Positions 1-16,977 of a stretch of 17,986 nucleotides of DNA are shown here, piece after piece. The DNA lies in IMG/VR virus record IMGVR_UViG_2667528065_000005. One strand, written 5' to 3'. Origin of the DNA: a virus. Lineage: Duplodnaviria > Heunggongvirae > Uroviricota > Caudoviricetes. Numbering within the stretch: position 1 is the stretch's first letter; every line of letters starts with the position of its first letter. The notes beneath the pieces were generated by a model that saw only the letters and a list, made by a program, of their open reading frames with translations, searched no databases and was not told the origin of the DNA. The position numbers were made by a program, and so were the translations under genes.

Positions 1-350
1 CCTTAACTGATCGGCATTACAGCCAGATGCTGGGCTTTATTGCCGAAAACTATGATCAGGCGCTGACCATCAACGATGTGGCTGAGCACGTCAAACTTAA
101 CGCCAACTATGCAATGGGGATATTCCAGCGGGTCATGCAATTGACGATGAAACAGTACATTACCGCGATGCGCATCAACCACGTTCGCGCGTTACTGAGC
201 GATACCGATAAAAGTATTCTCGATATTGCCCTGACGGCAGGCTTTCGTTCGAGTAGCCGTTTTTACAGCACGTTCGGCAAATATGTCGGCATGTCGCCGC
301 AACAATACCGCAAACTTAGCCAACAGCGCCGCCAGACGTTTCCCGGCTAA
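1..350 (+). CDS. melR: AraC-family transcriptional activator, C-terminal part (5' end upstream of window); matches melibiose operon regulator MelR
   Basis: Frame open from the window edge to a stop at 348-350. Translation ends ...NYAMGIFQRV...FRSSSRFYSTFGKYVGMSPQQYRKLSQQRRQTFPG, an AraC-type HTH pair. Sits directly upstream of adiA as in E. coli. Confidence 0.7.
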   Translation, partial: LTDRHYSQMLGFIAENYDQALTINDVAEHVKLNANYAMGIFQRVMQLTMKQYITAMRINHVRALLSDTDKSILDIALTAGFRSSSRFYSTFGKYVGMSPQQYRKLSQQRRQTFPG

Positions 351-545
351 AGACGATATCAGTATCAGCCAAAAAAATAGTTTAGCCGTCGATAATAAGC
401 AGTGAAAATAATTTAAAATAATCACATAACGTATTGTTTATAAAAATAAATATTTCAAAAATGTTTGTTTTTCACGCGCTTTACAGCCCGAAAAGGCCGG
501 AAGATACTTGCCCGCAACGAAGATTCCTTCATAACCGGGTAAGCA
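351..545 (+). promoter_or_regulatory. AT-rich melR-adiA intergenic region, presumed adiA promoter and RBS
   Basis: About 195 bp of AT-rich non-coding sequence ending in an RBS-like stretch before the ATGATG start at 546. No promoter elements were mapped. Confidence 0.35.
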
Positions 546-2288
546 ATGATGAAAGTATTAATTGTTGAAAGCGAGTTTCTCCATCAAGACACCTGGGTCG
601 GTAACGCCGTTGAGCGTCTGGCAGATGCTTTAAGCCAGCAAAATGTTACCGTGATTAAATCCACCTCCTTTGATGATGGTTTTGCCATTCTCTCTTCAAA
701 CGAAGCCATTGACTGCCTGATGTTCAGCTATCAAATGGAACATCCGGACGAACATCAAAACGTCAGACAATTGATCGGTAAGCTTCATGAGCGCCAACAA
801 AACGTGCCGGTCTTCCTGTTGGGCGATCGGGAAAAAGCCCTCGCCGCAATGGACCGGGATCTGCTGGAGCTTGTCGATGAATTCGCCTGGATTCTGGAAG
901 ATACCGCCGACTTTATCGCCGGACGCGCCGTTGCCGCGATGACCCGCTACCGCCAGCAGCTATTGCCGCCACTGTTCAGCGCGCTGATGAAATATAGCGA
1001 CATCCATGAATATTCCTGGGCAGCGCCAGGCCACCAGGGCGGCGTTGGTTTTACCAAAACACCCGCCGGACGTTTCTACCATGACTATTATGGTGAAAAT
1101 CTGTTCCGCACCGACATGGGTATCGAACGCACTTCCCTCGGTTCTTTGCTTGACCATACTGGCGCATTTGGCGAAAGCGAAAGATATGCCGCACGCGTAT
1201 TTGGTGCCGATCGCTCCTGGTCGGTAGTCGTCGGTACTTCCGGCTCTAACCGCACCATCATGCAGGCTTGCATGACCGATAACGATGTAGTGGTCGTTGA
1301 CCGTAACTGCCATAAATCCATCGAACAAGGCTTGATGCTGACAGGCGCGAAACCGGTCTACATGGTGCCAAGCCGCAACCGCTACGGCATTATCGGGCCA
1401 ATCTATCCGCAGGAAATGCAACCTGAAACCTTGCAGAAGAAAATCAATGAAAGCCCGCTGACCAAAGACAAAGCCGGGCAAAAACCGTCTTACTGCGTGG
1501 TGACCAACTGCACCTATGACGGCGTGTGTTATAACGCTAAAGAAGCACAGGATCTGCTGGAAAAAACCTCCGATCGTCTGCACTTTGACGAAGCCTGGTA
1601 CGGCTATGCACGTTTCAACCCGATCTATGCCGATCACTATGCCATGCGCGGCGAACCTGGCGATCACAACGGTCCTACCGTTTTCGCCACCCACTCCACC
1701 CACAAACTGCTGAATGCGCTGTCACAGGCCTCTTATATTCATGTACGTGAAGGTCGTGGGGCGATTAACTTCTCCCGCTTCAACCAGGCCTACATGATGC
1801 ATGCCACCACCTCCCCGCTGTATGCCATCTGCGCATCCAACGACGTGGCGGTGTCGATGATGGACGGCAACAGCGGCCTGTCACTGACCCAGGAAGTGAT
1901 CGACGAAGCGGTTGATTTCCGTCAGGCGATGGCGCGGCTATATAAAGAGTTCACCGCTGACGGTAGCTGGTTCTTCAAACCGTGGAACAAAGAAGTCGTC
2001 ACCGACCCACAAACCGGCAAAACCTATGACTTTGCTGACGCACCAACCAAACTGCTGACCACCGTTCAGGACTGCTGGGTCATGCATCCGGGCGAAAGCT
2101 GGCACGGCTTCAAAGATATTCCGGATAACTGGAGTATGCTCGACCCGATTAAAGTCAGCATCCTTGCTCCGGGAATGGGTGAAGATGGTGAACTGGAAGA
2201 AACCGGTGTTCCGGCGGCGCTGGTCACAGCCTGGCTTGGTCGCCACGGCATTGTGCCTACCCGTACCACTGACTTCCAGATTATGTTC

Positions 2289-2320
2289 CTGTTCTCTATG
2301 GGCGCTGTTCTCTATGGGCG
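2289..2320. repeat. Perfect 16-bp tandem duplication (ctgttctctatgggcg x2) inside adiA; +1 frameshift
   Basis: Read directly: unit at 2289-2304 repeated at 2305-2320. Confidence 0.95.
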
Positions 2321-2367
2321 TGACCCGTGGGAAATGGGGGACTCTGGTTAACACCCTTTGCTCCTTC

Positions 2368-2409
2368 AAACGCCACTATGATGCCAACAAACGCCACTAT
2401 GATGCCAAC
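2368..2409. repeat. Perfect 21-bp tandem duplication (aaacgccactatgatgccaac x2) inside adiA; in-frame, duplicates KRHYDAN
   Basis: Read directly: 2368-2388 repeated at 2389-2409. Confidence 0.95.
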
Positions 2410-2436
2410 ACACCGCTGGCGCAGGTGATGCCGGAA

Positions 2437-2480
2437 CTTGTTGAACAATATCCTGACACTTGTTGAACAATATCCTGACA
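2437..2480. repeat. Perfect 22-bp tandem duplication (cttgttgaacaatatcctgaca x2) inside adiA; frameshift
   Basis: Read directly: 2437-2458 repeated at 2459-2480. Confidence 0.95.
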
Positions 2481-2501
2481 CTTACGCGAACATGGGGATT
2501 C

Positions 2502-2549
2502 ACGATCTGGGTGACACCATGTTTGACGATCTGGGTGACACCATGTTTG
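2502..2549. repeat. Perfect 24-bp tandem duplication (acgatctgggtgacaccatgtttg x2) inside adiA
   Basis: Read directly: 2502-2525 repeated at 2526-2549. Confidence 0.95.
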
Positions 2550-2562
2550 CCTGGCTGAAAGA

Positions 2563-2628
2563 AAACAACCCTGGCGCACGGTTGAATGAAGCCTAAAACA
2601 ACCCTGGCGCACGGTTGAATGAAGCCTA
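2563..2628. repeat. Perfect 33-bp tandem duplication inside adiA; the junction creates a TAA stop in the reading frame in use at that point
   Basis: Read directly: aaacaaccctggcgcacggttgaatgaagccta at 2563-2595 repeated at 2596-2628. The junction gcc|taa gives a stop at 2594-2596. Confidence 0.95.
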
Positions 2629-2637
2629 TTCCGGCCT

Positions 2638-2677
2638 ACCGGTGGCGGAAATCACCTCACCGGTGGCGGAAATCACC
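2638..2677. repeat. Near-tandem duplication, 19-nt core (accggtggcggaaatcacc) with period 21 and a 2-nt difference at the junction, inside adiA
   Basis: Read directly: copies at 2638-2656 and 2659-2677 separated by tc. Translates as VAEIT..VAEIT. Confidence 0.9.
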
Positions 2678-2781
2678 CCGCGTGAAGCGTACAACGCGAT
2701 TGTCGACAACAATGTCGAACTGGTATCCATTGAAAATCTGCCAGGACGTATCGCGGCAAACTCAGTTATCCCGTATCCGCC

Positions 2782-2816
2782 AGGAATCCCGATGCTGTCT
2801 AGGAATCCCGATGCTG
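2782..2816. repeat. Imperfect tandem duplication, 16-nt core (aggaatcccgatgctg) with period 19, inside adiA; net frameshift
   Basis: Read directly: copies at 2782-2797 and 2801-2816 separated by tct. Confidence 0.9.
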
Positions 2817-2988
2817 CTGTCTGGTGAAAACTTCGGCGATAAAAACAGTCCGCAAGTAAGTTATTTACGCTCGCTGCAATCCTGGGACCATCATTTCCCT
2901 GGATTTGAACACGAAACAGAAGGGACAGAAATTATTGACGGTATTTACCACGTTATGTGTGTGAAAGCGTAACCACTATTCCGCTGAA

Positions 2989-3015
2989 GGCGTAATTGTT
3001 AAATAACATTACGCC
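2989..3015 (+). terminator. Hairpin just downstream of the adiA stop (8-bp stem ggcgtaat/attacgcc with a partly self-complementary loop)
   Basis: Inverted repeat read directly; only a short T-run follows (ttttaag after a second short GC element). Confidence 0.4.
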
Positions 3016-3089
3016 GCCTGGCTTGAGGCCTTTTAAGTATGGCAACGTTTTCATAAAAATTGCTGCAAACAAAAAATGTCATGCTTTTT

Positions 3090-3117
3090 GCGCGGTCCCA
3101 CCCCGCGCTTTTTTTTG
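3090..3117 (+). terminator. Rho-independent terminator-like element: GC stem gcgcgg/ccgcgc, 7-nt loop, then a 9-T run
   Basis: Read directly: gcgcggtcccaccccgcgc followed by ttttttttt. Confidence 0.55.
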
Positions 3118-3593
3118 CCTGTTATTTATCCTTTTTTTAGCCTGTAAAAAAATATGTATCATGAGAAATTAGCCTATAAAAATATGTAATATTAGTAAAA
3201 CTCGTTATTTTTATGCATGTTTATATTCATCATACAATTATATAACCATTTCCCGGTATCGCTTCGCTTTAGCGAGAACTGGTCTTTTATTCGCACTCAG
3301 GAGTACATGTATGAGGATTTGCAGCGACCAACCTTGTATTGTTTTATTGACTGAAAAAGATGTCTGGATAAGGGTGAATGGGAAAGAACCTATTAGCCTT
3401 AAAGCTAACCACATGGCGTTATTAAATTGTGAAAATAATATTATCGACGTCTCCTCTCTTAATAACACTTTGGTTGCTCATATTAGTCACGACTATGCAT
3501 GCAAAGATTACCTCACGACATCATCAAAGATAACATCCGGTCTCGCAAATACCAGTATGGCAACGTAGCGCTACGCCCATCCTCACCCTTCCA

Positions 3594-3646
3594 TGCCTGA
3601 CGCCAGACGTCTTTCGCGTCTGCCTGACGCCAGACGTCTTTCGCGT
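3594..3646. repeat. Near-perfect 27-bp tandem duplication in adiY (26/27 identical); in-frame, duplicates CLTPDVFRV
   Basis: Read directly: tgcctgacgccagacgtctttcgcgt at 3594-3619 and 3621-3646. Confidence 0.95.
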
Positions 3647-3799
3647 TGCCGCGCAGCATAGCATGATGCCCGCTGAAACTGAGTCAGAAAAGGAACGAAC
3701 ACGTGCATTATTATTCACTGTGCTATCCCGTTTTCTCGACAGTAAAAAATTCCTTTCACTAATGATGTATATGTTACGTAATTGTGTAAGTGACAGCGT

Positions 3800-3841
3800 T
3801 TATCAAATTATTGAAAGCGATTATCAAATTATTGAAAGCGA
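3800..3841. repeat. Perfect 21-bp tandem duplication in adiY (ttatcaaattattgaaagcga x2); duplicates YQIIESD
   Basis: Read directly: 3800-3820 repeated at 3821-3841. Confidence 0.95.
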
Positions 3842-4267
3842 TATCCACAAAGACTGGAATCTTAGTATGGTAGCCAGTTGTTTATGTCTTAGCCCAAGTC
3901 TGTTAAAGAAAAAGCTGAAAAGCGAAAACACCAGTTATAGCCAAATAATCACCCACCTGCCGCATGCGTTATGCCGTAAATGAATTAATGATGGACGGTA
4001 AAAATATCTCTCAGGTATCACAGTCCTGCGGCTACAACAGTACGTCGTACTTTATTTCTGTCTTTAAAGACTTCTACGGTATGACGCCGCTGCATTATGT
4101 TAGTCAGCACAGAGAACGCACTGTCGCCTGATTTTTAACCTTAACGAAGAGCTATATTAATAACGGCATCAGCGATAACCCGGCCGATAATAATTCAACT
4201 ATCGAATGCAGGCGTATGATATGACGTAATTTATTGTCACGAAGCTCGCCTTCGCAGGAGTTTAATT

Positions 4268-4777
4268 ATGTCTTCGGATGCTGATGCTCACAAAGTGGGC
4301 TTAATCCCCGTCACCCTGATGGTGTCGGGGAATATTATGGGGTCAGGTGTTTTTCTGTTACCTGCAAACCTGGCCTCCACTGGCGGGATTGCTATTTATG
4401 GATGGTTGGTGACGATTATCGGTGCGCTGTCGGTGCGCTGGGGCTCTCGATGGTATACGCCAAAATGTCGTTCCTCGACCCAAGTCCTGGTGGTTCTTAC
4501 GCTTACGCCCGCCGCTGCTTTGGCCCGTTTCTCGGTTATCAAACCAACGTCCTCTACTGGCTGGCCTGCTGGATCGGCAATATCGCCATGGTGGTCATTG
4601 GCGTAGGATATTTAAGTTACTTCTTCCCGATTCTGAAAGATCCATTGGTATTAACCATCACCTGCGTCGTGGTGCTGTGGATCTTCGTCCTGCTGAACAT
4701 TGTCGGTCCGAAAATGATCACCCGCGTACAGGCCGTTGCTACCGTGCTGGCGCTGATCCCCATCGTCGGGATTGCCG
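4268..4777 (+). pseudogene. adiC: Arginine:agmatine antiporter AdiC, 5' portion only; frameshifted by an 11-bp tandem duplication and cut off by the prophage junction
   Basis: [54 protein letters not shown] in frame 2, then ...[47 protein letters not shown]...IPIVGIA in frame 1. Coding sequence diverges into unrelated DNA after about 4777. Confidence 0.85.
4419..4440. repeat. Perfect 11-bp tandem duplication (tcggtgcgctg x2) in adiC; frameshift
   Basis: Read directly: 4419-4429 repeated at 4430-4440. Confidence 0.95.
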
Positions 4778-4782
4778 GAGGG

Positions 4783-4935
<153 letters not shown>

Positions 4936-4944
4936 TTGCAGATA

Positions 4945-5334
4945 TTACTCTTTTTTCTCCGTATCTGCATCGGGTTCATCAGCAAATAGCTTGCCCTGCA
5001 TCCGATCCAGTTCTTCTTTTCTTACCCGCTTAACCACGCTGTAGACCCACTGAAGCGAAACACCAAATTTGCGGGCCAGTTCGTGGTGGTTGCGTCCGTT
5101 AAACTCCCTGAAGATTTCCCGGTCGCGCTGACTGACCTTCCATACCATGCCCATCGGGAAATAAACGTTTTGCCCGCCCCAGACCTGCATCATTCGGTTC
5201 GCGACGGCCTGACCAATCTGGTCGGCAACTTCGGGCTCAATATCAATAATCTCGCGAACGGTCTCAGAGGTATGCTGTGCCAGTTCCACCAGGAGTTCCG
5301 GCCCCTTACTTCGAAACTGATTCAGGTCGCTCAT
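4945..5334 (-). CDS. mor: Mor/C-family phage transcriptional activator
   Basis: 129 aa. C-terminal ...GGQNVYFPMGMVWKVSQRDREIFREFNGRNHHELARKFGVSLQWVYSVVKRVRKEE matches the recalled Mu Mor pattern (GGGQVYIPRG...RD..I...FNGRN..EL...YGV....VYK..RR). Confidence 0.75.
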   Translation of the reverse strand: MSDLNQFRSKGPELLVELAQHTSETVREIIDIEPEVADQIGQAVANRMMQVWGGQNVYFPMGMVWKVSQRDREIFREFNGRNHHELARKFGVSLQWVYSVVKRVRKEELDRMQGKLFADEPDADTEKKE

Positions 5335-5755
5335 GTTTGACTCCCGCAGCTCTGCGCTGCCACTTCTTCAGTTTCTCAATAACACTGCTTGCCTGTTCAG
5401 TACTGAGCCAGCGCAGGGCGCTGATGCCCGTTTCCCGCTTGATCCACCTCGCTAATGCATTTTCTGAACGGTCACGAACAATGCCGGCAGCAGCCATTTC
5501 AAGCCATAGCGCACGAATTTTCCTGGACTGCGGATGGTTATCAAGCGGTAAACCGGAGCTGGCTTTTCTGGCTGGTTTAACGCGAAAGCCTTTCTTTTTC
5601 ATGGATTCCAGCACGCAGTTTAGTTGTGTGGTATCCATTCCTTTGGTTGAGGCTTTACCGGTCAGCCCCTGTAACATCTGGCGGTAGGTGTCTTCATCCA
5701 TACCCAGTTCATTACGGGCAATATGGATAAGCTGTATCAGGCGTTTTTTCTGCAT
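5306..5755 (-). CDS. gemA: GemA-like phage protein (Mu gp16 / DUF1018 family)
   Basis: 149 aa. N-terminal LIQLIHIARNELGMDEDTYRQMLQGLTGKAS...GF pattern typical of GemA-family proteins. Overlaps the mor start by 29 bp. Confidence 0.65.
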   Translation of the reverse strand: MQKKRLIQLIHIARNELGMDEDTYRQMLQGLTGKASTKGMDTTQLNCVLESMKKKGFRVKPARKASSGLPLDNHPQSRKIRALWLEMAAAGIVRDRSENALARWIKRETGISALRWLSTEQASSVIEKLKKWQRRAAGVKHERPESVSK

Positions 5756-5756
5756 A

Positions 5757-5963
5757 TCATCTCCTTTTTTTCAGTCTGTCGGCAACAATGTCGGTTGCAG
5801 CTGGCAGGGTGACTGGCCAGAACAACATGACGGCGGTCATGTACAGGATGTAATGCGCGGTGTCGTAGTGCCTGCCATAGCCCAGGGAACGATGAAGTCT
5901 TGCGCTGCATGATCCTGCGTACATATACCAGAAAAGAAAACAGACAATGGTTTCAGTAGTCAT
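5757..5963 (-). CDS. Small hydrophobic protein (about 68 aa, two predicted TM segments), hypothetical
   Basis: Internal ATG at 5963 preceded by a GGGGAGG Shine-Dalgarno. The longer 120-aa frame would overlap the upstream gene. Confidence 0.4.
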   Translation of the reverse strand: MTTETIVCFLFWYMYAGSCSARLHRSLGYGRHYDTAHYILYMTAVMLFWPVTLPAATDIVADRLKKRR

Positions 5964-6183
5964 TCTGAATACCTCCCCATTCGATATGAATATTACGGGC
6001 AGCAATGACAGGGTCGTTATTCCACCATGCACCTGACATGTATTTTTCAACCTGTTCGCGTCCGGCAATAACACCAATTGTGATCCCCGGCCTGACGTTC
6101 TTAAAAAAGGCGCGGGCAAAAAGGTATCTGGCAGATATTCGGCAGGCTTTTAATTTCCGGCTTTTACCTGATAGCGTAATCAT
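5953..6183 (-). CDS. Hypothetical phage protein (76 aa)
   Basis: ATGA start/stop overlap with the upstream gene at 6180-6183 and a GGAGG upstream; fits tight operon packing. Confidence 0.45.
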   Translation of the reverse strand: MITLSGKSRKLKACRISARYLFARAFFKNVRPGITIGVIAGREQVEKYMSGAWWNNDPVIAARNIHIEWGGIQNDY

Positions 6184-6863
6184 CTGGCCTCCAGTTTCTG
6201 TTGTTCCTGCCCACTGACCGGGCGGTGCAGTCTGACGTTCTGCCCTTCACGAAACCCCGCATAGCGCGAGGCGTCGCCATTGCGGCTTCTTCCCGGTTTA
6301 CGCGCCCTGGTGGTTTGCGTCTGCGGGTATTTATGTTCCAGCCACTGCTGCATCAGTTCACGCTCATCATCGGTCAGGGCAAAGGACTGTATTTCACTGA
6401 TAACGGCCAGCACCCAGCCTTCGGCAAACTGGTCTCCACGGCTGGTGCGGGTGGCGGTTTTTATTCTTTTGTTCTGTGCACTGATATACTGCTGACGCGC
6501 CTTTTTCAGCTGACGGGCCAGCACTTCCCAGGTGTATGCAGCCAGTGCCGCACGTTCCCGGTTGCCGTAGAACCCCACAGACGGATGCGTGCCGGGGTGA
6601 ATGATGGAGTTAACACCAAATACCTCGCGGATGATGTTCATCAGGCCCAGCATGTAGCGCGGTGGACGGAGACTGCCTGTCGGCCAGTAGTGACTGATGG
6701 TTTCATCAATATCACTCATAGCAATGTCGGAATGTGTGATGCCGTGAACATCCATCAGTTTACGGGCTCGGCGCAGTGCCAGAGCGGCCTCGTGCGGGTT
6801 GCCGGATGCGGCCAGCGCCAGCAACTTTTTCAGTTTCTCAATGTGTTTATTCTGGTCTGTCAT
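6180..6863 (-). CDS. Hypothetical phage protein with DUF2786-like N-terminus
   Basis: Translation from the internal Met (MTDQNKHIEKLKKLLALAASGNPHEAALALRRARKLMDVHGI...) resembles the DUF2786 N-terminal pattern. ATGA overlap with the upstream gene at 6860-6863; an alternative start at 6899 is possible. Confidence 0.5.
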   Translation of the reverse strand: MTDQNKHIEKLKKLLALAASGNPHEAALALRRARKLMDVHGITHSDIAMSDIDETISHYWPTGSLRPPRYMLGLMNIIREVFGVNSIIHPGTHPSVGFYGNRERAALAAYTWEVLARQLKKARQQYISAQNKRIKTATRTSRGDQFAEGWVLAVISEIQSFALTDDERELMQQWLEHKYPQTQTTRARKPGRSRNGDASRYAGFREGQNVRLHRPVSGQEQQKLEAR

Positions 6864-7075
6864 TGTTCTGTATCTCCGGTATTTTTCTGCCGTTTCCATG
6901 CCCGGACAGCGTCGGACAGCTCTTTCAGGCTGTATGCTGCTTTAAGCTTTTCCCATAACCACTGTGTTGTTATGTGCATCAGCAGGGCAGCCAGGGCTGC
7001 CCCCGCACTGAGGCATGTCGCCAGGCCAGTAAGAATCAGTGTCCATGCGGTGATTTCCCTGAGTATGTCAGCCAT
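6860..7075 (-). CDS. Small membrane protein (71 aa), hypothetical
   Basis: Hydrophobic stretch WTLILTGLATCLSAGAALAALLM; packed in the operon. Confidence 0.45.
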   Translation of the reverse strand: MADILREITAWTLILTGLATCLSAGAALAALLMHITTQWLWEKLKAAYSLKELSDAVRAWKRQKNTGDTEQ

Positions 7076-7089
7076 TGAATGCCTCCCGG

Positions 7090-7386
7090 TTACTCGTTCG
7101 TGTAAATCACGCCCAGTCGTGCAGCCAGACGTTCCAGTTTTTTCTGTTTGTGGAAGTCAATCAGCCGGTCCATCCCCTGAAGGCGCAGTTGCTCTGTCAT
7201 GATTTCCACGTCTGCCAGCTCTGCCGCGAGGTCACTTTCGCTGCCCTGTCCGTTCAGGTTGCGGGCGGCACTGGCCGCCAGTTCAGCGGCCTCTTCTGCC
7301 AGTTTCAGGGCCTGTGCGTCCGGCCCGAAACGCTGCAGGGCCAGACGGTAGAGGGCGGTGCGGGTGAGTTCGGTGTTTCGTGTCAT
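7090..7386 (-). CDS. MazG-like nucleotide pyrophosphohydrolase domain protein (small all-alpha NTP-PPase)
   Basis: 98 aa with LKLAEEAAELAAS ... ELADVEIMTEQL, resembling the EExxE...E/D metal-binding motifs of MazG-like NTP pyrophosphohydrolases. Confidence 0.5.
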   Translation of the reverse strand: MTRNTELTRTALYRLALQRFGPDAQALKLAEEAAELAASAARNLNGQGSESDLAAELADVEIMTEQLRLQGMDRLIDFHKQKKLERLAARLGVIYTNE

Positions 7387-7395
7387 GCCGCGCCC

Positions 7396-7668
7396 TCAGT
7401 GCTTCCGGCTGACGGTGATGTGCAGGCCGCCTTCTGCAGTGGTTTCCATCCGGTACGGCACCTCATGCTCTGCCGTGTGGGTGAGTGTGTTCATCAGTAC
7501 CTGCAGGGCAGCCTCCTTTCCGTTGGTCGCCACAATGGCCTGTGTGGCCATGCTGATTAGCGCCGTCAGGACGTGCTTCACATCGGTGAGGTCGCGGCAT
7601 TCACACTCGTTGACATAGTGTTCAACAAGAGTTCGGGTGCGCTGTCGTGCTTCCTGTGGGGTAATCAT
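7396..7668 (-). CDS. Hypothetical phage protein (90 aa)
   Basis: ORF in operon register; 4-bp overlap with the upstream gene. Confidence 0.45.
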   Translation of the reverse strand: MITPQEARQRTRTLVEHYVNECECRDLTDVKHVLTALISMATQAIVATNGKEAALQVLMNTLTHTAEHEVPYRMETTAEGGLHITVSRKH

Positions 7669-7859
7669 TGCGCGTCCTCCCTGTCAGGGCGGGAGAATTC
7701 CATGACGGGCACGTCCGCCGAAAAATGCTGGCTGCAGTACGGGCAGACCAGGGTGACACGTACTGCAGGTATGTGATACTTACCGGACATCACGGCGATG
7801 GCGCTGTGAAAACGCAGGGCTGTTATATCCCTCTCGCACTGAATACATTTAAATATCAT
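7665..7859 (-). CDS. Small zinc-ribbon-like protein (CxxC...CxxC), hypothetical
   Basis: 64 aa with KCIQCE ... VCPYCS cysteine pairs. Confidence 0.45.
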   Translation of the reverse strand: MIFKCIQCERDITALRFHSAIAVMSGKYHIPAVRVTLVCPYCSQHFSADVPVMEFSRPDREDAQ

Positions 7860-7956
7860 AATTTAATTCTCCTCTGTTTCCGGCGTGCAGAAGCCCGCGG
7901 CGCTGACGCCGGAATAAAAAAGAAAATGTTTTTATTAAATAATTAACGTGGTGTGT

Positions 7957-8487
7957 TTACTGCACATCCTGCTCAAAAGGAATTATTGAAAAATCCTCAA
8001 TATCACTTTTTATGGTAATACCGGGAATATTTTTCACAGCCTCTTTTTCATTCAGAATGGCATCTTTATTTATTTCCTCCTTTACACGAATAAAGCGCTC
8101 AAGCCCCAGACGTCTCAGCAGTTCAATGACATTATCCGCCCCGCGAATGCTGACTGACGGCGGACGGTTTCGCCACTGCACCTCGCCGGTGGTGAGGTTA
8201 GCGAACTTCACCTTCCCGTTGCCGGTCAGTTCATCACGGTGCGCCTCACACCATGTCTGGATACCGGACTGCAGTTCGGCCATGCGTTTTTTCAGGCTCT
8301 CGGTGAGCGGGGCATAACGTGCAGTGATGTCGCCAATGGTGTCATTCATTTCTGTTTCAGCCCTGACCAGTTCACGTTGCGCGTCACCAAGCAGTCTGAT
8401 TCCCTCAATGACCTCTTCGCGTGTCCCCGGCACCCAGAGTGCTGCTGCGGCTTTGATACGTTTTGCCCCTTTTGTACTTTTTGCCAT
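7957..8487 (-). CDS. gam: Host-nuclease inhibitor Gam (Mu Gam-like DNA-end-binding protein)
   Basis: 176 aa. MAKSTKGAKRIKAAAALWVPGTREEV...TEMNDTIGDIT...WCEAHRDELTGNGKVKFANLTTGEVQWRNRPPSVSIRGADNVIELLRRLGLERFIRVKEEINK...GITIKSDIEDFSIIPFEQ aligns along its length with the recalled Mu Gam. Confidence 0.85.
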   Translation of the reverse strand: MAKSTKGAKRIKAAAALWVPGTREEVIEGIRLLGDAQRELVRAETEMNDTIGDITARYAPLTESLKKRMAELQSGIQTWCEAHRDELTGNGKVKFANLTTGEVQWRNRPPSVSIRGADNVIELLRRLGLERFIRVKEEINKDAILNEKEAVKNIPGITIKSDIEDFSIIPFEQDVQ

Positions 8488-8514
8488 ATTTTATGACTCC
8501 TCCTGTTGTGCTGA

Positions 8515-8784
8515 TTACCACAAAGATTCCGGCCACACGACGCGACAGCCGTGCAGTTCGAAAACGCCCTGACGGAAATGTCCCCTGTGGTCATGACCGG
8601 TATACAGATAACAGGCCTTTCCCTGCTCAAGCATGCGCATGCAATGCGCACTCCGGGAAACGCGGATGACAGGTTTGTTACCCCTGATGGTGATGCTTTG
8701 TACATCCGTGTTCGTCGCCTTAAGCGCCATAATGGCTGACTGCACTTTGCTGATTTGCTGGTTGATACCTGTGGTGGATTTCAT
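8515..8784 (-). CDS. Hypothetical phage protein (89 aa) between the MuB-like gene and gam
   Basis: ORF in operon register, 2 bp after the B-like stop. Confidence 0.45.
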   Translation of the reverse strand: MKSTTGINQQISKVQSAIMALKATNTDVQSITIRGNKPVIRVSRSAHCMRMLEQGKACYLYTGHDHRGHFRQGVFELHGCRVVWPESLW

Positions 8785-8786
8785 TA

Positions 8787-9953
8787 TTAAACCCCTTTGA
8801 CAACGTCAGCGTTGACCTGTGGAACCCCGATTTCAGCGGCCAGATTCATGGCGGCTATTACCAGGTTACTGACGGCCAGCGGATACAGCAGGCTGACCAT
8901 ATTTTTACGATGACTTCCCGGATTGCTCAGGCGGGCACGTATGGCATCCACTGCGCTGGCGTCCATAATGTCCGTCAGTTGTTTACCGGCCCGTTGCAGT
9001 TTGAACGTCAGAAACTCTTCAAGGTTATTGTCCAGAGGCAGAAGTTCGACCACCTCACAGCGCTGAACGACTTCACGGACTTCCATATTGCGTTCAGACA
9101 GTTTTGTCGCCAGTTCCGGCTGGCCAATCAGCACGATGGACAGCAGTTTTTTGAAACCGGACTCCAGCTCAAAAAAGCGTTTGAGGTGTTTCAGTGTCGG
9201 AATGGGCAGACTGTGGGCCTCCTCAATCACCAGAACGTGGCTGAACCCCGCCTGGCTGCTGTCTTTCAGGACGCGATGCAACTGGCGAAAGCGGGCGTCC
9301 TGACTGCGTCTGATGCTTTCCAGTGGTGCGATGGTACTGATAATGGCTTCGGCAATCGCTGCTGCCTTCAGGGTTTTCCCTTTCACATCGTTGTCTTCCA
9401 TAGCGATGATGTATGGCTCGATAACAATTACCGGCGCATTCTCGCGGTTGATACGTTCAGTCAGGTCGCGGCGCAGCGTGGATTTACCCGCACCGGACTC
9501 ACCGATGACGGCCATAAACCCACCATGACGGGCTGTCTGGTACAACGCCTCACGCACGTAGCGAATATCCGGGGTGGTGAACACATCATCAGAACCCTGC
9601 ATGGCTTCGTCGGCGAACGGGTCACGGAAAAGACCAAACGCTTTTTTGGTTGCTGGAAATAACACCTGTTTTTTGAGTAACATATTCTCTTCCTCACTGA
9701 GGCTCGTTTTATCTGTGGTACCCGCTGTACGGGGCGTGGCCGCGCCCTGTACAGCATCAAAACTCTTCGTTGTATCAATCCCCTGACTTTCCAGCCAGGA
9801 CGCAAGACGCCGGCGCACTTCTCCGGGGCTGGTGCGGGGCCACGCGTTATGATTCACAATCTGGGCCAGCGTGGCCTCAGAAACATCGACAGCTCTCGCC
9901 ACCACCGCCTGTGGAATACGGGCCTCTTTCAGTTGCTGCTTCAGTACCAGCAT
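8787..9953 (-). CDS. MuB-like AAA+ ATPase (transposition target/activator protein)
   Basis: Walker A GESGAGKST and Walker B HVLVIEEAH; N-terminal HTH-like region. Likely start is the ATG at 9953 with GGAGGG upstream (the longest frame extends to 9992). Immediately downstream of the transposase gene. Confidence 0.8.
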   Translation of the reverse strand: MLVLKQQLKEARIPQAVVARAVDVSEATLAQIVNHNAWPRTSPGEVRRRLASWLESQGIDTTKSFDAVQGAATPRTAGTTDKTSLSEEENMLLKKQVLFPATKKAFGLFRDPFADEAMQGSDDVFTTPDIRYVREALYQTARHGGFMAVIGESGAGKSTLRRDLTERINRENAPVIVIEPYIIAMEDNDVKGKTLKAAAIAEAIISTIAPLESIRRSQDARFRQLHRVLKDSSQAGFSHVLVIEEAHSLPIPTLKHLKRFFELESGFKKLLSIVLIGQPELATKLSERNMEVREVVQRCEVVELLPLDNNLEEFLTFKLQRAGKQLTDIMDASAVDAIRARLSNPGSHRKNMVSLLYPLAVSNLVIAAMNLAAEIGVPQVNADVVKGV

Positions 9954-9963
9954 GTTTCCCTCC

Positions 9964-11733
9964 TCAGTTGCCGTTAACAATGCTGATAACACTGCTGCGG
10001 GCCGGTGTGGTCAGCGTGGCCATGACTTCATCCAGTGCGGCTTCCGGTACGCCGTCCGGGTACTGTGCCGTTAACTGGCGGTAATGTTCCGGCGTCCAGG
10101 TAAGGCCGTCGGCGCTGAACTTATCGCGCAGGGCTTTCGCGGCCTCCACATGAGTCATGGGACGTTGTTCAGTGCGCGGCCCGCGTACGTCAGAGGCCTG
10201 ACCACGCTTCGGCATATAGGCCGGAAGTGTGGTGTCGTCGATATGTTTATACGGGTCAAGCCGCCCGCCGAACGGCAGCGCCTTCGCCTTGCGTGCGGCG
10301 GCTGCATCTGCGGCGTTGTCTGTACCGGTAACCAGCGCTTCGGTTTCTTTTGCCGCCATCTGTGCCGGGGTTTCCGGCAGGGCTTTGTAACTTTCGCCAA
10401 ATACCGCCGCGCCTTCAGCAAAGCCAAACTCGTTCTTTCTGACCTCTTCGACCAGGAAGAACGTCTCGTGGCCGTCCTCACCGGTCAGAACCACCTGTGC
10501 CACATCGCTGCGCCATGGGTTACGGGTAATCATCAGTTTTTCACCAACCAGTACGCCCGGTACCGTTGATACGTCAAATTCAGTGCCCCGGAACGAGACA
10601 CGAAGTTTTGGCGTGACTTTGCGGAGTTCTGGTGCCGCCACAGCCAGTTCACGACATACCTCAACGGAAGGCGCTTTTTTCAGCTGCTCAGCAGTAATCT
10701 TCAGCCAGATATCCGTGCGGGTTTTACCGTGGCGGCTGTGAACAGCCGTGGCGTTAAAGTGGCTGCGCCATTTCGCGGCCAGCGCGTTGAGTTCTTCCAG
10801 ACTGTGAACCGGCCGGAACTTCAGACCCGGCTCCAGCTTGCGTTCGATAATGTCACGCGCCTTTTCCACCTGTCCGGTGGCGCGGGCGTTATGCGGCTTG
10901 TGCGCTATCAGGTCAATGCCCAGTGAGCGGCACATGTTTTTCGTCATACCCGCGGTGTTTGCCGAACCGGGGTCGAGATAGAGTATTTTTGGCACGCCGT
11001 GCAGCACGTCTGCGCCGCCACGCTCCTGCATGGCGTTGATAAGCACAGAACACAGGTTCTCACCGGATTCCGCACCCGTCACATACTCAACGTAAATCCA
11101 GCCGCTGGCATGGTCGGTAATCTCGTAACTCCACACGCGGTCACTGGCGATACGGGCAAGGTTAGCGGGTTTGTTCTTGTAGAACTTCGCGCTGTCCATC
11201 ACCTGCAGCCCTTTGTGTCCATTGCTCAGGTAGTAAAGCGTGCAGAGCGAGGCATCAATCTGCCAGACATGATTGGGATGCAGACTGGCCACTTCGGTAT
11301 GCGGCGCAGGAGCATCCAGTTGTTCCGGGTGCAGGCCATAGTTACGCAGGGCACGACTGATGGCATCTTCGGACAACGGGAAAAACTCACCGGTGGTTTC
11401 ATCTGTTCTGCCTGCGGAGATAAAGCCGTTAGCCCGCAGGGTTTCCACTGCATCCGCGATGGAATAGAGACGCTTACCGTTCTTGCGGGTGGCCTCACGC
11501 AGTGTGGCAGATATCAGCGCGGCTTCGTCGCGGGTCAGGGCGCTGCGTCCGGCATCAGCGCGTTTTTTGCGTTTATCAGTCACAGAGACCTCCTTCAGCC
11601 TGCGCAGCAGAGTGGCGCGGGACATGCCAAGTTCAGCACAGGCAGCGTCGTATATTGCACCGCGTTTACCATGCCCCGCGTCACGTGCCGCGCGGGCGAC
11701 ATAAACCAGTCGTTCAGTCAGGGCAGCATTCAT
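9964..11733 (-). CDS. DDE transposase (Mu A-like / rve-fold)
   Basis: 589 aa. N-terminal HTH-like region, then candidate catalytic residues in HVWQIDAS, LYLDPGSANT and NARATGQVEK. GGAGG upstream of the start. Confidence 0.8.
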   Translation of the reverse strand: MNAALTERLVYVARAARDAGHGKRGAIYDAACAELGMSRATLLRRLKEVSVTDKRKKRADAGRSALTRDEAALISATLREATRKNGKRLYSIADAVETLRANGFISAGRTDETTGEFFPLSEDAISRALRNYGLHPEQLDAPAPHTEVASLHPNHVWQIDASLCTLYYLSNGHKGLQVMDSAKFYKNKPANLARIASDRVWSYEITDHASGWIYVEYVTGAESGENLCSVLINAMQERGGADVLHGVPKILYLDPGSANTAGMTKNMCRSLGIDLIAHKPHNARATGQVEKARDIIERKLEPGLKFRPVHSLEELNALAAKWRSHFNATAVHSRHGKTRTDIWLKITAEQLKKAPSVEVCRELAVAAPELRKVTPKLRVSFRGTEFDVSTVPGVLVGEKLMITRNPWRSDVAQVVLTGEDGHETFFLVEEVRKNEFGFAEGAAVFGESYKALPETPAQMAAKETEALVTGTDNAADAAAARKAKALPFGGRLDPYKHIDDTTLPAYMPKRGQASDVRGPRTEQRPMTHVEAAKALRDKFSADGLTWTPEHYRQLTAQYPDGVPEAALDEVMATLTTPARSSVISIVNGN

Positions 11734-11736
11734 TGG

Positions 11737-12648
11737 TTATGCCTCCAGCCCGTTAATCTGTGGCGTCGGCTCAGTCAGCCATGAAGGCGCGGCATTGCCT
11801 GTTGGCTCATCCGGCAGGTCAAATGTGGAGCGCAGGCTACGCGCTGTGCTTTCCAGTTGACAGACCAGGCCTGCCATGAAGTCTCTGGGGGTATCAATCA
11901 TGTTTTCAGCACAATATGCGCACAGCGTCTCAAAAGCGCTGGACAGTCGAACGGCGATAGCAGATTCCGCCTCAACCGCTAATGCTGTCACTTCCGCCCG
12001 CAGCTTCTTAACCTCTTCATCAGGCTCAGGCGGCTGAATACGGGATTTCTTCTCCAGTCTGGTGGAGAGTGAGTCTATTTTTTCATTTTTGTCAGCGAGT
12101 ACGCGCTGTTGTGCTGCGTTGGTTTCGCGCGCTTCGCGCAGGGCCTGACGCAATTCACGTACTGACATGCGATCAACGTCGTCAAGCGTCAGGCCGGCAA
12201 CTGTGCCGCCGTCGGCCAGTTCGGCAAGCTCTTCGTCGTCTTCTGTCATTAATTCGAAAAGTTTGGCTTTTCCCAAATGTGCCAACGTTGGCACATTTGG
12301 TTTCAGCGCCGGGGATAAGTATTTTGTCGATGCTTGCATCATTCTCACAGATGTCCGGTATGCCAGCCCCAACTCACTTTCAAGAATCTTTATAAACTCC
12401 CCGTGTGGTTCATTTTCCTTAAGGATTATCAGCCGCTTACCTGCCTCCAGCATGGCCTCAGCGCTCTGTGCCATATAAAAGCGTGCCTCATGGACAACAC
12501 GATCGCGCTCATAGGGCAGACCATCGCCGAACTGTTGCATGATTTCCATGCGATGCTGTGTCATGGCGTTTAGACTGACATTGAGATCATCCGACAGCGG
12601 TACCTCGACGTTCAGTTCAGTGCTAACCGGTGATTTGGTGCGTCCCAT
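11737..12648 (-). CDS. Hypothetical phage protein (303 aa) with a coiled-coil-like acidic central region
   Basis: Long ORF with AAGGAG upstream of the start; lies between the Ner-like genes and the transposase. Confidence 0.55.
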   Translation of the reverse strand: MGRTKSPVSTELNVEVPLSDDLNVSLNAMTQHRMEIMQQFGDGLPYERDRVVHEARFYMAQSAEAMLEAGKRLIILKENEPHGEFIKILESELGLAYRTSVRMMQASTKYLSPALKPNVPTLAHLGKAKLFELMTEDDEELAELADGGTVAGLTLDDVDRMSVRELRQALREARETNAAQQRVLADKNEKIDSLSTRLEKKSRIQPPEPDEEVKKLRAEVTALAVEAESAIAVRLSSAFETLCAYCAENMIDTPRDFMAGLVCQLESTARSLRSTFDLPDEPTGNAAPSWLTEPTPQINGLEA

Positions 12649-12658
12649 TGATTACTCC

Positions 12659-12967
12659 TTACAAACGACTACCTGAAATAACACGTTGGTTGATTTCGTT
12701 AATGCGATCCTGTGCACGTGCCATCTCGTTACTGTGGGCCATGGCGATCTGCAGCAACTGGATGCCTGGTGCGAAACGCCCGTTTTCTAGTTTCAGAGCC
12801 AACCCTTCTTCAATGAGCGTGTTAAGTGCCCGGTTGATGTTTGCCGGTGATTCGTGCAGTGCAACCGCTAGTTCCCCGTTAGAAACACCGTTCAAAGCGT
12901 GGCCACGTAAGGCCTTAAGAACGCGCAAAATACGGGTACCTGAGCTTGATGTATTTGGTTTATTCAT
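12659..12967 (-). CDS. Winged-helix/HTH DNA-binding protein (102 aa)
   Basis: GTRILRVLKALRGHALNGVSNGELAVALHESPANINRALNTLIEEGLA resembles an HTH of the IclR/MarR type. 4-bp overlap with the upstream gene. Confidence 0.5.
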   Translation of the reverse strand: MNKPNTSSSGTRILRVLKALRGHALNGVSNGELAVALHESPANINRALNTLIEEGLALKLENGRFAPGIQLLQIAMAHSNEMARAQDRINEINQRVISGSRL

Positions 12968-13188
12968 GACGCCTCCTTAAGGATACCGGGGGTAACTTCT
13001 TTACCTATTGCAACCGATAGATCTCGCAAAATCCGATAAGTCAAACGACCGCGAGGTAGTTCACTTTTACCAGCCCAGCGACTGACTGCCTGGGTGACTG
13101 TTCGTGGTTCATAGCCCGCGTTAAGCGCGAACTGGCGCAAGCTACTGCCTCGTTCAACCAGCCGTGCCCGAACTTGTTGTTTGTTCAT
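12964..13188 (-). CDS. ner: Ner-like DNA-binding protein (Ner/Nlp family)
   Basis: VRARLVERGSSLRQFALNAGYEPRTVTQAVSRWAGKSE matches the recalled Mu Ner pattern (ADVIAGLKKRKLSLSALSRQFGYAPTTLANALERHWPKGE). Divergent from the repressor gene. Confidence 0.65.
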   Translation of the reverse strand: MNKQQVRARLVERGSSLRQFALNAGYEPRTVTQAVSRWAGKSELPRGRLTYRILRDLSVAIGKEVTPGILKEAS

Positions 13189-13276
13189 ATGCACCGTGTT
13201 CCTGTTAGGTTATGATGTACTCTATTGGGTCTATTGTACACACCCAAATGAGTGTGTCAAATTGAGATATGTTCAA
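13189..13276. promoter_or_regulatory. Divergent ner / repressor control region with candidate operators
   Basis: 88-bp gap between divergent genes. Contains inverted repeat ACACAC-N8-GTGTGT (13238-13257) and direct repeat tctattg x2 (13221-13236). Confidence 0.4.
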
Positions 13277-13684
13277 ATGAGTACAAAAGAGAGATTGCGT
13301 GAAGTGATGGATGCTAATGGCATGACAATAAAGGCATTATCTAACTTATCAAAAATTCCATATCGCTCACTTCAAAACTATTTGCGTGGAGAGAGAGAAC
13401 CAAACGCAGAGGCTCTTGTTGCGCTAAGCACCCATTTGGGTGTATCGATCGATTGGCTACTTACCGGTAAAGAACATATTCCATCTAAAGAAATTGTTGC
13501 TGTACCAACACAACATCAATTCAGCCCGTCAGACCTTAAAATGCTTGAACTTCTAAACCAGTTAGATCCTGAGGTTCGGCGAGATCTCATGCGAGGCGCT
13601 GAAGAAAAACAGCGTGTGATTGAGATGGAAAAACAACTGAAGGAATTATCCGCAACGATTGAGCGGTTAAAAAATGTGGGTTAA
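13277..13684 (+). CDS. XRE-family (Cro/CI-type HTH) phage repressor with C-terminal coiled-coil
   Basis: MSTKERLREVMDANGMTIKALSNLSKIPYRSLQNYLRGEREPNAEALVALSTHLGVSIDWLLTG is a typical XRE HTH. Divergent from the early operon. The ORF track's longer frame starts at 13181, but that would overlap ner. Confidence 0.65.
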   Translation: MSTKERLREVMDANGMTIKALSNLSKIPYRSLQNYLRGEREPNAEALVALSTHLGVSIDWLLTGKEHIPSKEIVAVPTQHQFSPSDLKMLELLNQLDPEVRRDLMRGAEEKQRVIEMEKQLKELSATIERLKNVG

Positions 13685-13754
13685 TGTGTTCCTAACGAGA
13701 ACATATAGCAGAAATTATTTGCCATTAAGCAATAAAAAATAAGGTGGATAGCTA

Positions 13755-14762
13755 ATGTCTGAGCAGACCATTGAAGTTAAACACGTTGTAGTTCACATTT
13801 TAGACAAACAACAAAATGGAGACGCTTCTGAGAGATTGAGTCCTGAAGAAGGTCTAGTTACTGAAGCCTCCCAGCGCCTTATAAACGATATTTGTGCAAA
13901 ATATGCAGGACGCACAGGTAAAGGTTATGGCTATTTTGAAGGCGATACGGATAACTATCCTATGGAACGAATGGCTGGGGACTTTCTCGAAGGTGTTGAT
14001 GATTTCTACCAAAGTTCCTGCCGAATGATGCATCACCTGACGGAACGTTCTCAGCGAGAAAACATGGCTACTGGTGGTTATGTTCTTTTTGCAAATATCG
14101 TGATAGGACACAATGAACACCTGTTGATAGCTATTGTAAGCGCTACCATTGGATCCACTGTCACAGATGATTTTAACATCCAAGATAGTACCTATCTTGA
14201 TATTGCTAAGCTGCGTATGGCTGGGCGCATTGACTTAACCGCGTGGGAAAGTGGCGCAGAGCGCTATATCAGTTTTCTTAAGGGGCAAGGTAATGTTTCA
14301 AACTATTTTAAACAGTTCCTCGGCTGTAATGATGTCTTAATCGCCAAACGAGAGTCTGAAAAGTTACGTGACGTTTTAAAAGCATTTGCGGCAGAGAAAG
14401 GACTTGACGGCGCTGAAAAAGATGCATTTCTTAAGAGTGCGTTTGAACACTTACATGCACTAAGTAAGGCTGGTGAACCACTTAGTCTTGAAACCCTTGT
14501 TAATGCCATTTGGCCCCAGGCTCCCGAGGAGTTATCTGGTAAACTTGCTGCTGAAGAGTTGGAGTTATCGGATGGCTTCGTTCCTGATGGTCGAGTCATT
14601 CGGGCTCTGGTATCTTTTAAAGGCAAGTCTAAATATTGGGAACTTAAGTTTGACCGGGAAGGGAAAACTGAAGGCTATATTGATTATGATCCGGAAACAA
14701 ATATTATCACCCTACGTAATGTACCTGAAGAATTTAGGGAAATGTGGATGACTGAGGTTTAA
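13755..14762 (+). CDS. Divergent YejK/NdpA-family nucleoid-associated protein homolog (335 aa), prophage cargo
   Basis: Shared blocks with recalled E. coli YejK along the whole length: GGYVLFANIVIGHNEHLLIAIV, YLDIAKLRMAGRIDLTAWE, YISFLKGQ, YFKQFLGCNDVLIAKRE...AEKGLDGAEKDAF, ITLRNVPEEFRE. AAGGTGG Shine-Dalgarno before the ATG. Confidence 0.65.
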   Translation: MSEQTIEVKHVVVHILDKQQNGDASERLSPEEGLVTEASQRLINDICAKYAGRTGKGYGYFEGDTDNYPMERMAGDFLEGVDDFYQSSCRMMHHLTERSQRENMATGGYVLFANIVIGHNEHLLIAIVSATIGSTVTDDFNIQDSTYLDIAKLRMAGRIDLTAWESGAERYISFLKGQGNVSNYFKQFLGCNDVLIAKRESEKLRDVLKAFAAEKGLDGAEKDAFLKSAFEHLHALSKAGEPLSLETLVNAIWPQAPEELSGKLAAEELELSDGFVPDGRVIRALVSFKGKSKYWELKFDREGKTEGYIDYDPETNIITLRNVPEEFREMWMTEV

Positions 14763-14764
14763 TC

Positions 14765-16730: not shown

Positions 16731-16772
16731 AATCTGTAAGCCTTTTACAATTATAAAAAATATGGCAGGCTA

Positions 16773-16794: not shown

Positions 16795-16835
16795 GAACCT
16801 CGGTCGGCTCACAGCGCATTCCTGTGGGGCGATGG

Positions 16836-16873: not shown

Positions 16874-16977
16874 AAAGTCATCATGCAGTGCACGTTTACA
16901 TCTTCACTATTAACGCTGTTTAAAATCCGTATCCCGCCACATTTGTGATGCTGTCTCCACCAAACGAGGAGACACAC

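Follow-up and report, generated by a model that had tools for sequence, protein, structure and literature searches.

Three genes of arginine-dependent acid resistance in E. coli, adiA (enzyme), adiY (regulator) and adiC (antiporter), are each disrupted, mostly by short tandem duplications, in a stretch of DNA of 17,986 nucleotides (hereafter the window), and the question that this locus raises is whether the damage records a lineage-specific loss of the system or a non-biological perturbation confined to one segment, the two readings offered by the first-pass annotation. The window is the whole of a public E. coli draft contig, AOQI01000070.1 (assembly GCA_000397365.1), with the same length, and over the 12.35 kb compared the public record is byte-identical to it, which rules out a perturbation added to the sequence after deposition. 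With the lesions excluded, the backbone from 20 to 4776 has 0 mismatches both to E. coli D8 and to a clonal sibling, the 40-kb contig L004. The genes and lesions of the adi segment are the following.

546–2972 (+): adiA, arginine decarboxylase; the true gene has 756 codons and is broken here by seven tandem duplications
2289–2822 (+): cluster of seven stutter duplications in adiA, with units of 16, 21, 22, 24, 33, 21 and 19/22 nt
2289 (+): adiA duplication 1, 16 nt
2367 (+): adiA duplication 2, 21 nt
2436 (+): adiA duplication 3, 22 nt
2502 (+): adiA duplication 4, 24 nt
2562 (+): adiA duplication 5, 33 nt
2638 (+): adiA duplication 6, 21 nt, imperfect
2782 (+): adiA duplication 7, 19/22 nt, imperfect
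3159–3184 (+): AT-rich adiA–adiY spacer with small errors (T inserted at 3159, GC inserted at 3172–3173, T>A at 3184)
3311–4131 (+): adiY, AraC-type activator; the true gene has 253 codons and is broken here by what are very probably artefacts
3494–3540 (+): scramble in adiY, an error-laden 23-nt duplication with a 12–16-nt deletion
3594–3646 (+): stutter duplication in adiY, 27/26 nt, with an extra C closing copy 1
3800–3842 (+): stutter duplication in adiY, 21 nt, exact
3952 (+): insertion of one C in adiY
4268–4781 (+): 5' part of adiC, arginine/agmatine antiporter, codons 1–168, truly cut off by a prophage
4419–4440 (+): duplication in adiC, 11 nt, very probably artefactual

As a description of the sequence, the statement that all three genes are disrupted holds, with lesions at these coordinates. 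Seven exact and four near-exact tandem duplications (units of 11–33 nt) occur in the window, all of them inside 2289–4440, an interval that holds in addition one deletion of 12–16 nt and several small errors. The reading frame is lost at the 16-nt duplication at 2289, giving an AdiA product of 601 aa versus 756 aa, and the duplication lengths show no frame bias. Counting of exact tandem copies with a unit of at least 11 nt gave 7 for the window and 2 for a sister draft, L005 (AOQB01000082.1); none was found in 100 shuffles (analytic expectation about 0.006) or at 30 other loci of the region (~240 kb), naturally decayed adiA included. The two copies of the imperfect duplications (3/3) differ only at the last 1–6 nt of copy 1, and microhomology at the duplications is merely 0–4 nt. 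At the adiY scramble the first piece, with three 1-nt insertions, stops at 3514; the following piece resumes 23 nt back with 3 substitutions, and 12–16 nt are then absent. Within adiA the pieces between successive junctions measure 83, 70, 68, 69, 64 and 142 nt, those of 64–83 nt being read-sized. GC content, at 27–40%, explains poor support in the spacer and adiY; for the lesions in adiA, where it is a normal 49–61%, it does not, and it is rejected as the only cause.

The comparison with close relatives proposed in the first-pass annotation was run on clonal siblings comprising L004, four independent Logan assemblies made from runs SRR6537xx (L006–L009), and other drafts deposited in that accession batch. 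Siblings that share the adiC::prophage junction agree with the window at every base once the lesions are set aside, L004 showing 0 other differences over 11.7 kb. None of the lesions occurs in them, and the four Logan contigs are likewise clean; the damage, with every one of the adiA duplications, is private to the window. AdiA is intact in L004 (756 aa) and AdiY in L004–L008 (253 aa), and the broken products of the window (AdiA of 601 aa, AdiY of 85 and 106 aa, AdiC of 128 aa) were found on no other contig among ~15 billion proteins. Inactivating lesions in adiA and adiY are not common to the clonal relatives; the prophage insertion in adiC is. Two of the four Logan contigs start exactly at lesion positions of the window, L009 at the first base of the 27/26-nt unit at 3594 and L006 at the spacer error position (3159–3184). 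We hold with high confidence that the lesions of 2289–4440 are build artefacts of a 2013-era draft, that adiA and adiY are really intact, and that the real lesion of this lineage is the prophage in adiC.

The prophage and its target are laid out as follows.

4776–4781 (+): 6-bp target-site duplication, CGTATT in all siblings and CGGAGG in the window
4782–17986 (+): left 13.2 kb of a Mu-like transposable prophage, with the true end 5'-TGATTAGAC; the contig stops inside the prophage
4945–5334 (−): Mor (Pfam)
minus strand: GemA (Pfam)
7957–8487 (−): Gam (Pfam Phage_Mu_Gam)
8787–9953 (−): MuB-like ATPase (Pfam AAA_22)
9964–11733 (−): DDE transposase (Pfam rve)
13181–13684 (+): repressor-like gene

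The insertion in adiC is genuine: the prophage lies at codon 168/169, has TG...CA ends and duplicates CGTATT, and would have entered by transposition. Its left junction reads ATTGC[CGTATT]TGATTAGAC in five assemblies (duplicated bases in single brackets). The right junction in adiC was predicted beforehand from a 6-bp duplication, GTCACC, that flanks the prophage in NZ_LR883012, and was then found as GGCGCATCA[CGTATT]TGGCTGG in the siblings AOQO01 and AOQN01; variants with a 5-bp target duplication (ORFs of 295 and 287 aa) were absent from the search in which the 6-bp version was found. The termini TGATTAGAC...GGCGCATCA are thus flanked on both sides by CGTATT in adiC or by GTCACC in NZ_LR883012. 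The adiC stump encodes 169 aa, and the clean AdiC(1–168)+D fusion, whose true ending is ...IAVFD (P0028), is present on 11 contigs (NCBI, ENA, Logan). A repaired fusion built from the bases of the window, ending ...IAGGD, had no match in the protein collection, by which the junction bases of the window were recognised as miscalled; against the siblings there are four T>G miscalls near the junction, at 4778, 4780, 4781 and 4782. The inactivation of three genes claimed earlier stands for adiC, through a Mu-like prophage that had not been named as such, and falls for adiA and adiY, both intact in siblings. Set beside the Adi (AR3) system (PMC12826058), the locus has the same gene order, melR-adiA-adiY-adiC-eptA, and a sequence identical to that of E. 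coli D8; it differs in that adiC is split by the prophage in this lineage, ending at codon 168 in the window and all siblings, with intact adiA and adiY in the siblings only and damage to them in the window that is very probably artefactual. The adiC insertion alone should be enough to end arginine-dependent acid resistance, since arginine/agmatine exchange is gone without AdiC.

That the prophage genes are free of such lesions, as previously noted, was upheld: this part is 100.0% identical to NZ_LR883012 in one piece of 13.2 kb. Its Pfam assignments (rve, AAA_22, Phage_Mu_Gam, Mor and GemA) form a Mu-like gene set, and RefSeq annotates the identical prophage in agreement with it. In other genomes the same phage end adjoins rayT, rimK, irp2, gspL, cysE and a lambdoid tail gene. 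The element shares with Mu-like prophages of Enterobacteriaceae the DDE (rve) transposase, MuB-like ATPase, Gam, Mor and GemA, 5'-TG...CA-3' ends, a target-site duplication and many unrelated target genes, and differs in the orientation of its early operon, which is opposite to that of the late genes. Mu duplicates 5 bp of its target, whereas the two insertion sites examined here each have a duplication of 6 bp, which adds a minor descriptive detail on this E. coli Mu-like prophage group. The closest described phage is Escherichia phage PhiKM (PQ738613), with 95.8% identity over only 74% of the 13.2 kb, followed by Klebsiella phage KP12 and then Escherichia phage Phi06_2974 B.

At the other flank the features are these.

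1–19 (+): right terminal inverted repeat of IS4, CCTTAACTGATCGGCATTA; the contig starts inside the IS
20–32 (+): 13-bp IS4 target, CAGCCAGATGCTG, duplicated in E. coli 7CC
20–350 (+): 3' portion of melR with the C-terminal HTH domain; no difference from melR of D8 from position 20 on

The melR fragment carries no tandem duplication, but the description of melR as clean needs amending, since the contig opens with an IS4 end at an insertion site in melR. Positions 1–48 match strain 7CC (NZ_CM137006) at 48 of 48 bases, and in that strain melR is interrupted at this very base by an annotated IS4 transposase. The terminal repeat, the flanking 13-bp target and the melR base are common to both, and 7CC is of a different lineage (51 mismatches in 4.5 kb) with the full structure at this site, terminal inverted repeats and a target duplication (11–13 bp in IS4) around a DDE_Tnp_1 transposase, whereas the window holds just the last 19 nt of IS4 and the right target copy. 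Positions 1–19 being an IS4 end and not melR, melR::IS4 is implied in the source strain; judged from these bases, melR is probably cut by IS4 in this isolate, and the contig would start at its present position because IS4 interrupts melR. In L004-type siblings melR is intact. A look-up of the MelR C-terminal ORF (27–350) for Logan support of melR::IS4 among siblings gave nothing but long contigs from unrelated lineages.

In the account that we favour, a poorly read-supported stretch would have been bridged by short, read-sized pieces, set end to end and left unmerged. Where neighbouring pieces overlapped by 11–33 nt, the overlap would have been written twice and appear as a tandem duplication; pieces that fell short of each other would have left bases out; and the low-quality 3' tails of the pieces would have left errors beside the junctions. 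Low coverage would be the cause, and the unmerged joining a putative step of the software. Hallmarks of such an origin are the absence of the lesions from independent assemblies of the same clone (L004, L006–L009), the gathering of errors at piece ends with both overlaps (duplications) and non-overlaps (deletion) present, and the occurrence of the same kind of lesion elsewhere in the same batch. This last is seen in the sister draft AOQB01000082.1, which has duplications of its own at other places (29 nt in adiA, 44 and 29 nt in the adiA–adiY spacer) and whose melR jumps into the last 18 nt of IS4 with ~1.4 kb skipped, indicating that pieces were abutted without a gap. The non-biological perturbation suggested at the outset is accordingly the reading that survives, already present in the public record and bearing the marks of assembly or gap filling. 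Tandem assembly errors and error-prone sites of gap closing are established categories in the literature (PMC5870766; PMC9575681), and the likeness to them lies in false head-to-tail copies of concatenated overlaps, errors and lost bases at closed gaps, and confinement to one assembly. The units of 11–33 nt seen here lie under the 100-bp lower limit given for HaploMerger2, and 11 of them crowd into 2.1 kb of a bacterial draft. E. coli P0304816.4 (AQBB01000157.1), with a truncated AdiA, was considered as a second case of the artefact and rejected, as it is of a different lineage (349 mismatches) and has a plain 1-nt frameshift.

An artefact with a biological trigger would arise if most cells of the sequenced culture had a deletion or rearrangement between adiA and adiC, for example one mediated by the prophage, and sparse reads from the remaining minority were stitched over 2289–4440. 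The lesions are sharply bounded with perfect flanks on both sides, the two drafts with lesions are of the subclone that carries IS4, and Logan contigs of sibling runs also break in 2289–4440, all of which would agree with such a trigger; the deletion junction, however, is in none of the assemblies, and the Logan contigs break inside the prophage too, which suggests modest coverage generally. This explanation is purely inferential, and strikes us as very improbable.

We regard as very improbable that the duplications are real and private to the isolate, a burst of short tandem duplications within 2.1 kb beside the prophage. They are present in the deposited sequence and lie at most 2.5 kb from the end of a transposable phage, yet ~17 lesions in 2.1 kb would have to be reconciled with 0 substitutions elsewhere against the siblings over 11.7 kb. 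Errors that gather at the ends of copy 1, the T>G run at the prophage junction, the abutting-type deletion in the window together with the IS4 skip in the sister draft, the different lesions of that draft, the inconsistent microhomology and the failure of any broken product to recur in another assembly all speak against it. A specific form of this idea, in which eleven short, largely microhomology-independent tandem duplications and small indels arose beside the Mu-like prophage end in one isolate, maybe from abortive transposition or error-prone repair synthesis, is one to which we give hardly any credence; if true, such a localised burst would represent a mutational process of which E. coli offers no description. 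Decay of the entire adi operon into pseudogenes within this lineage, a reductive loss as in Shigella-like lineages, can be set aside with near certainty: adiC is truly inactivated in the lineage and naturally fragmented adiA is known in other genomes, but siblings that have the same prophage junction and none of the duplications encode an intact AdiA of 756 aa and an intact AdiY of 253 aa, and natural adi pseudogenes at 10 other loci are without the tandem-duplication signature.

On the reading of a build artefact, the importance of the finding is mainly cautionary, since it is ordinary in itself and flags an error in the public record. Dense false tandem duplications would be present in GenBank draft AOQI01000070.1 and, at the least, in its sister draft AOQB01000082.1. 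Genes would wrongly pass for pseudogenes, and counts of these, pan-genome analyses and conclusions about the loss of acid resistance would be misled. For the organism, arginine-dependent acid resistance of the clone is predicted to have been lost by a single event, the entry of a Mu-like prophage into adiC, with adiA and adiY intact, and the subclone would additionally carry IS4 in melR.

The window is the whole of the public draft contig AOQI01000070.1 (GCA_000397365.1; 17,986 bp), as a search for exact matches to the truncated AdiA protein revealed. It consists of 4.8 kb from the E. coli melR–adiA–adiY–adiC region, followed by 13.2 kb of prophage. Positions 20–4776 show zero mismatches to E. 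coli D8 once a set of discrete lesions is put aside, and the prophage section matches that in NZ_LR883012 at 100.0% identity in a single piece; the prophage genes are indeed lesion-free, as the first-pass annotation had it. The lesions are as follows.

Lesions in the window
2289–2822, adiA 3′ third: seven tandem duplications with units of 16, 21, 22, 24, 33, 21 and 19/22 nt
3159, adiA–adiY spacer: +T
3172–3173, adiA–adiY spacer: +GC
3184, adiA–adiY spacer: T>A
3494–3540, adiY: scrambled segment
3594, adiY: duplication of 27/26 nt
3800, adiY: duplication of 21 nt
3952, adiY: +C
4419, adiC: duplication of 11 nt

The first lesion in each gene cuts its product, to 601 (adiA), 85 (adiY) and 112 aa (adiC). 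Counting only exact duplications whose unit is 11 nt or longer, the window holds 7 against 0.006 expected, and none was found in 100 shuffles or in 30 other loci of the region (~240 kb, naturally decayed adiA genes included); the lesions are therefore real in the sequence and far beyond chance, and the earlier description of adiA, adiY and adiC as each disrupted, mostly by tandem duplication, holds for the window. A set of 5,426 complete E. coli genomes contains none of the lesions. The prophage genes contain two weak tandem repeats of natural origin, at 6983–7001 and 9975–9997 (9 and 12 nt, 90% match); shared with two sibling contigs (L004 and L005), these are real sequence outside the affected stretch.

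The duplications are almost certainly tandem assembly errors, densely clustered in a draft contig, and not a biological feature. That they are instead real private mutations of the isolate is very improbable, and several observations speak against it. The sister draft AOQB01000082.1 (L005) carries like lesions at other positions, namely one of 29 nt in adiA and two, of 44 nt and 29 nt, in the spacer. In the three imperfect duplications the mismatch is confined to the last 1–6 nt of the first copy, right at the junction, while the second copy and everything downstream are always perfect. Within the scrambled adiY segment a piece runs up to 3514 and has three 1-nt insertions close to its end, and the next begins 23 nt back and carries three substitutions, after which 12–16 nt are absent; joining of overlapping pieces would thus give a duplication and joining of nonoverlapping pieces a deletion. 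The prophage junction reads CGGAGG followed by GG in the window, versus CGTATT followed by TG in five other assemblies, that is, four T called as G within 5 nt. The pieces between the adiA junctions are read-sized (83, 70, 68, 69 and 64 nt), the lengths of the duplications are not biased with respect to frame, and no more than 0–4 nt of microhomology is present. Two of the four Logan contigs from sibling runs begin exactly at window lesions, one where the 27-nt unit starts and one at the +T at 3159, which is the pattern that coverage breaks would give (by a rough estimate, the chance of coincidence is of the order of 0.3%). Finally, in L005 at 1495–1520 melR (...GCGCCATGC) gives way directly to the terminal 18 nt of IS4 (CCAAACTGATCGGCATTA) and then resumes; missing are ~1.4 kb of IS4, the left copy of its target and a 12-nt stretch of melR. 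This structure, whose 304-aa "MelR" is found on that contig alone, is intelligible only as an abutment of contigs with no gap marker. Tandem assembly errors are treated as a recognised problem in section 2.5 of PMC5870766, and error-prone gap-closing sites in PMC9575681. Thin read support for the stretch would be the cause; both this and the exact software step behind the lesions we infer. The specificity to one functional unit, which had seemed striking, is only apparent, because a badly supported 2.1-kb stretch happens to cover the adiA 3′ end, adiY and the adiC 5′ end. AOQI01000070.1 and AOQB01000082.1 should be flagged as unreliable in this region.

Lineage-specific loss, one of two explanations put forward in the first-pass annotation, does not survive comparison with siblings of the same clone. 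adiC was repaired in silico from the window and searched by exact sequence; the repaired fusion itself gave no match, and a 169-aa AdiC–prophage fusion protein (P0028, ending ...IAVFD), differing from it at only two junction residues, is present in NCBI, ENA and Logan. P0028 lies on 11 contigs, among them the 40-kb contig L004, the same-batch sister draft L005 and Logan contigs L006–L009 (runs SRR653724, SRR653737, SRR653739 and SRR653745), and since the adiC–prophage junction is common to all of these they belong to one clone. Over 11.7 kb L004 is identical to the window save for the window lesions and a phage-end variant of its own, and its AdiA and AdiY products are intact, at 756 and 253 aa. 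All four Logan contigs lack the window lesions, AdiY is intact in the three that extend to it (L006–L008), and the broken products occur in no other contig among ~15 billion proteins. With siblings lesion-free at the same junction and the broken products unique, loss of adiA and adiY at the level of the lineage is excluded; the clean siblings, the separate lesions of L005 and the errors at junction ends support the other explanation, a nonbiological perturbation of the segment. Addition of the lesions after deposition is ruled out, the window being byte-identical to AOQI01000070.1 over the 12.35 kb retrieved, so that the oddities are already in the public record. L004 and L005, though different assemblies, start at one identical base inside melA (position 1490 of D8 locus L001), which hints at another repeat, mobile element or deletion end there; D8, L004 and L005 are without melB between yjdF and melA.

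Two insertions in the region are events of known, ordinary kinds. The first, probably real, is an IS4 in melR. Window positions 1–19 are the right inverted repeat of IS4, and positions 20–32 (CAGCCAGATGCTG, 13 bp) are the sequence that in E. coli 7CC (NZ_CM137006) is duplicated around an annotated IS4 dividing melR at the same base. melR of the source strain is thus probably interrupted by IS4; with an IS4 end and its target at the contig start, melR is not clean, contrary to what had been supposed, and the contig broke at the IS. melR is intact in L004-type siblings, so the insertion marks a subclone, into which both flawed drafts fall. 7CC is a separate lineage (51 mismatches in 4.5 kb), and L024 (CP019944.1) has a DDE_Tnp_1 transposase immediately upstream of its MelR C-terminal ORF; this suggests that the site is an IS4 hot spot.

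The second, which is genuine, is the insertion of a Mu-like prophage in adiC. The prophage termini, 5′-TGATTAGAC and GGCGCATCA-3′, were defined by comparing insertion sites. The copy in NZ_LR883012 has the 6-bp duplication GTCACC on its two flanks, and the right junction in adiC was therefore predicted to read GGCGCATCA, then CGTATT, then TGGCTGG. A 6-bp duplication predicts a C-terminal adiC ORF of 267 aa and a 5-bp duplication one of 295 or 287 aa; only the 267-aa ORF exists, and the 5-bp alternative was rejected. Siblings AOQO01000013.1 and AOQN01000005.1 carry the right junction exactly as predicted, adjoining a Gin-like resolvase, with eptA and basR following. At each of the two sites examined the target duplication is thus 6 bp long, with CGTATT in adiC and GTCACC in NZ_LR883012, whereas phage Mu duplicates 5 bp.

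Target-duplication sites
Window, 4776–4783
Loci L020/L021, 900–912
Locus L002, 5993–6000
Locus L011, 9435–9440

The prophage, which is found in unrelated genes of other genomes, encodes an rve transposase, MuB-like ATPase, Gam, Mor and GemA, and is closest to Escherichia phage PhiKM (95.8% identity over 74%). In window 4945–13684 its minus-strand early operon (Mor, GemA, Gam, MuB-like ATPase, transposase, DUF3102 and a small HTH protein) reads toward the left end, diverging from a repressor-like gene (13181–13684, plus strand), after which come late genes (holin, transglycosylase) on the plus strand; relative to Mu this layout is inverted. In the otherwise clean L004, positions 6049–6075 show the left phage end as GATTAGACCTGGTTCCGAGATGAAATG in place of GATTAGACTTGAGATAAATG, the extra bases including CTGGTTCCG, a 9-nt perfect match to adiC immediately downstream of where the prophage is inserted. 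The variant may be another assembly chimera, of occupied-site reads with right-junction or empty-site reads.

Elsewhere, in L023, L025, L026, L028 and L032 (3500–5800), adiA lies in many small ORFs and melA and melB are decayed, which is either genuine, Shigella-like reductive decay or the product of noisy long-read assemblies; none of the five bears the tandem-duplication signature. In loci L012–L019 (~1967–3304), from several unrelated lineages, adiC is split without a prophage into a 158-, 169- or 171-aa ORF and the same 267-aa ORF, the split span in L013 having the length of the intact gene, which points to codon 170 being a premature stop. adiC seems to have been inactivated more than once in E. 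coli. Because the Adi system depends on AdiC to import arginine and export agmatine, as PMC12826058 describes, this clone should have lost arginine-dependent acid resistance through the prophage insertion.
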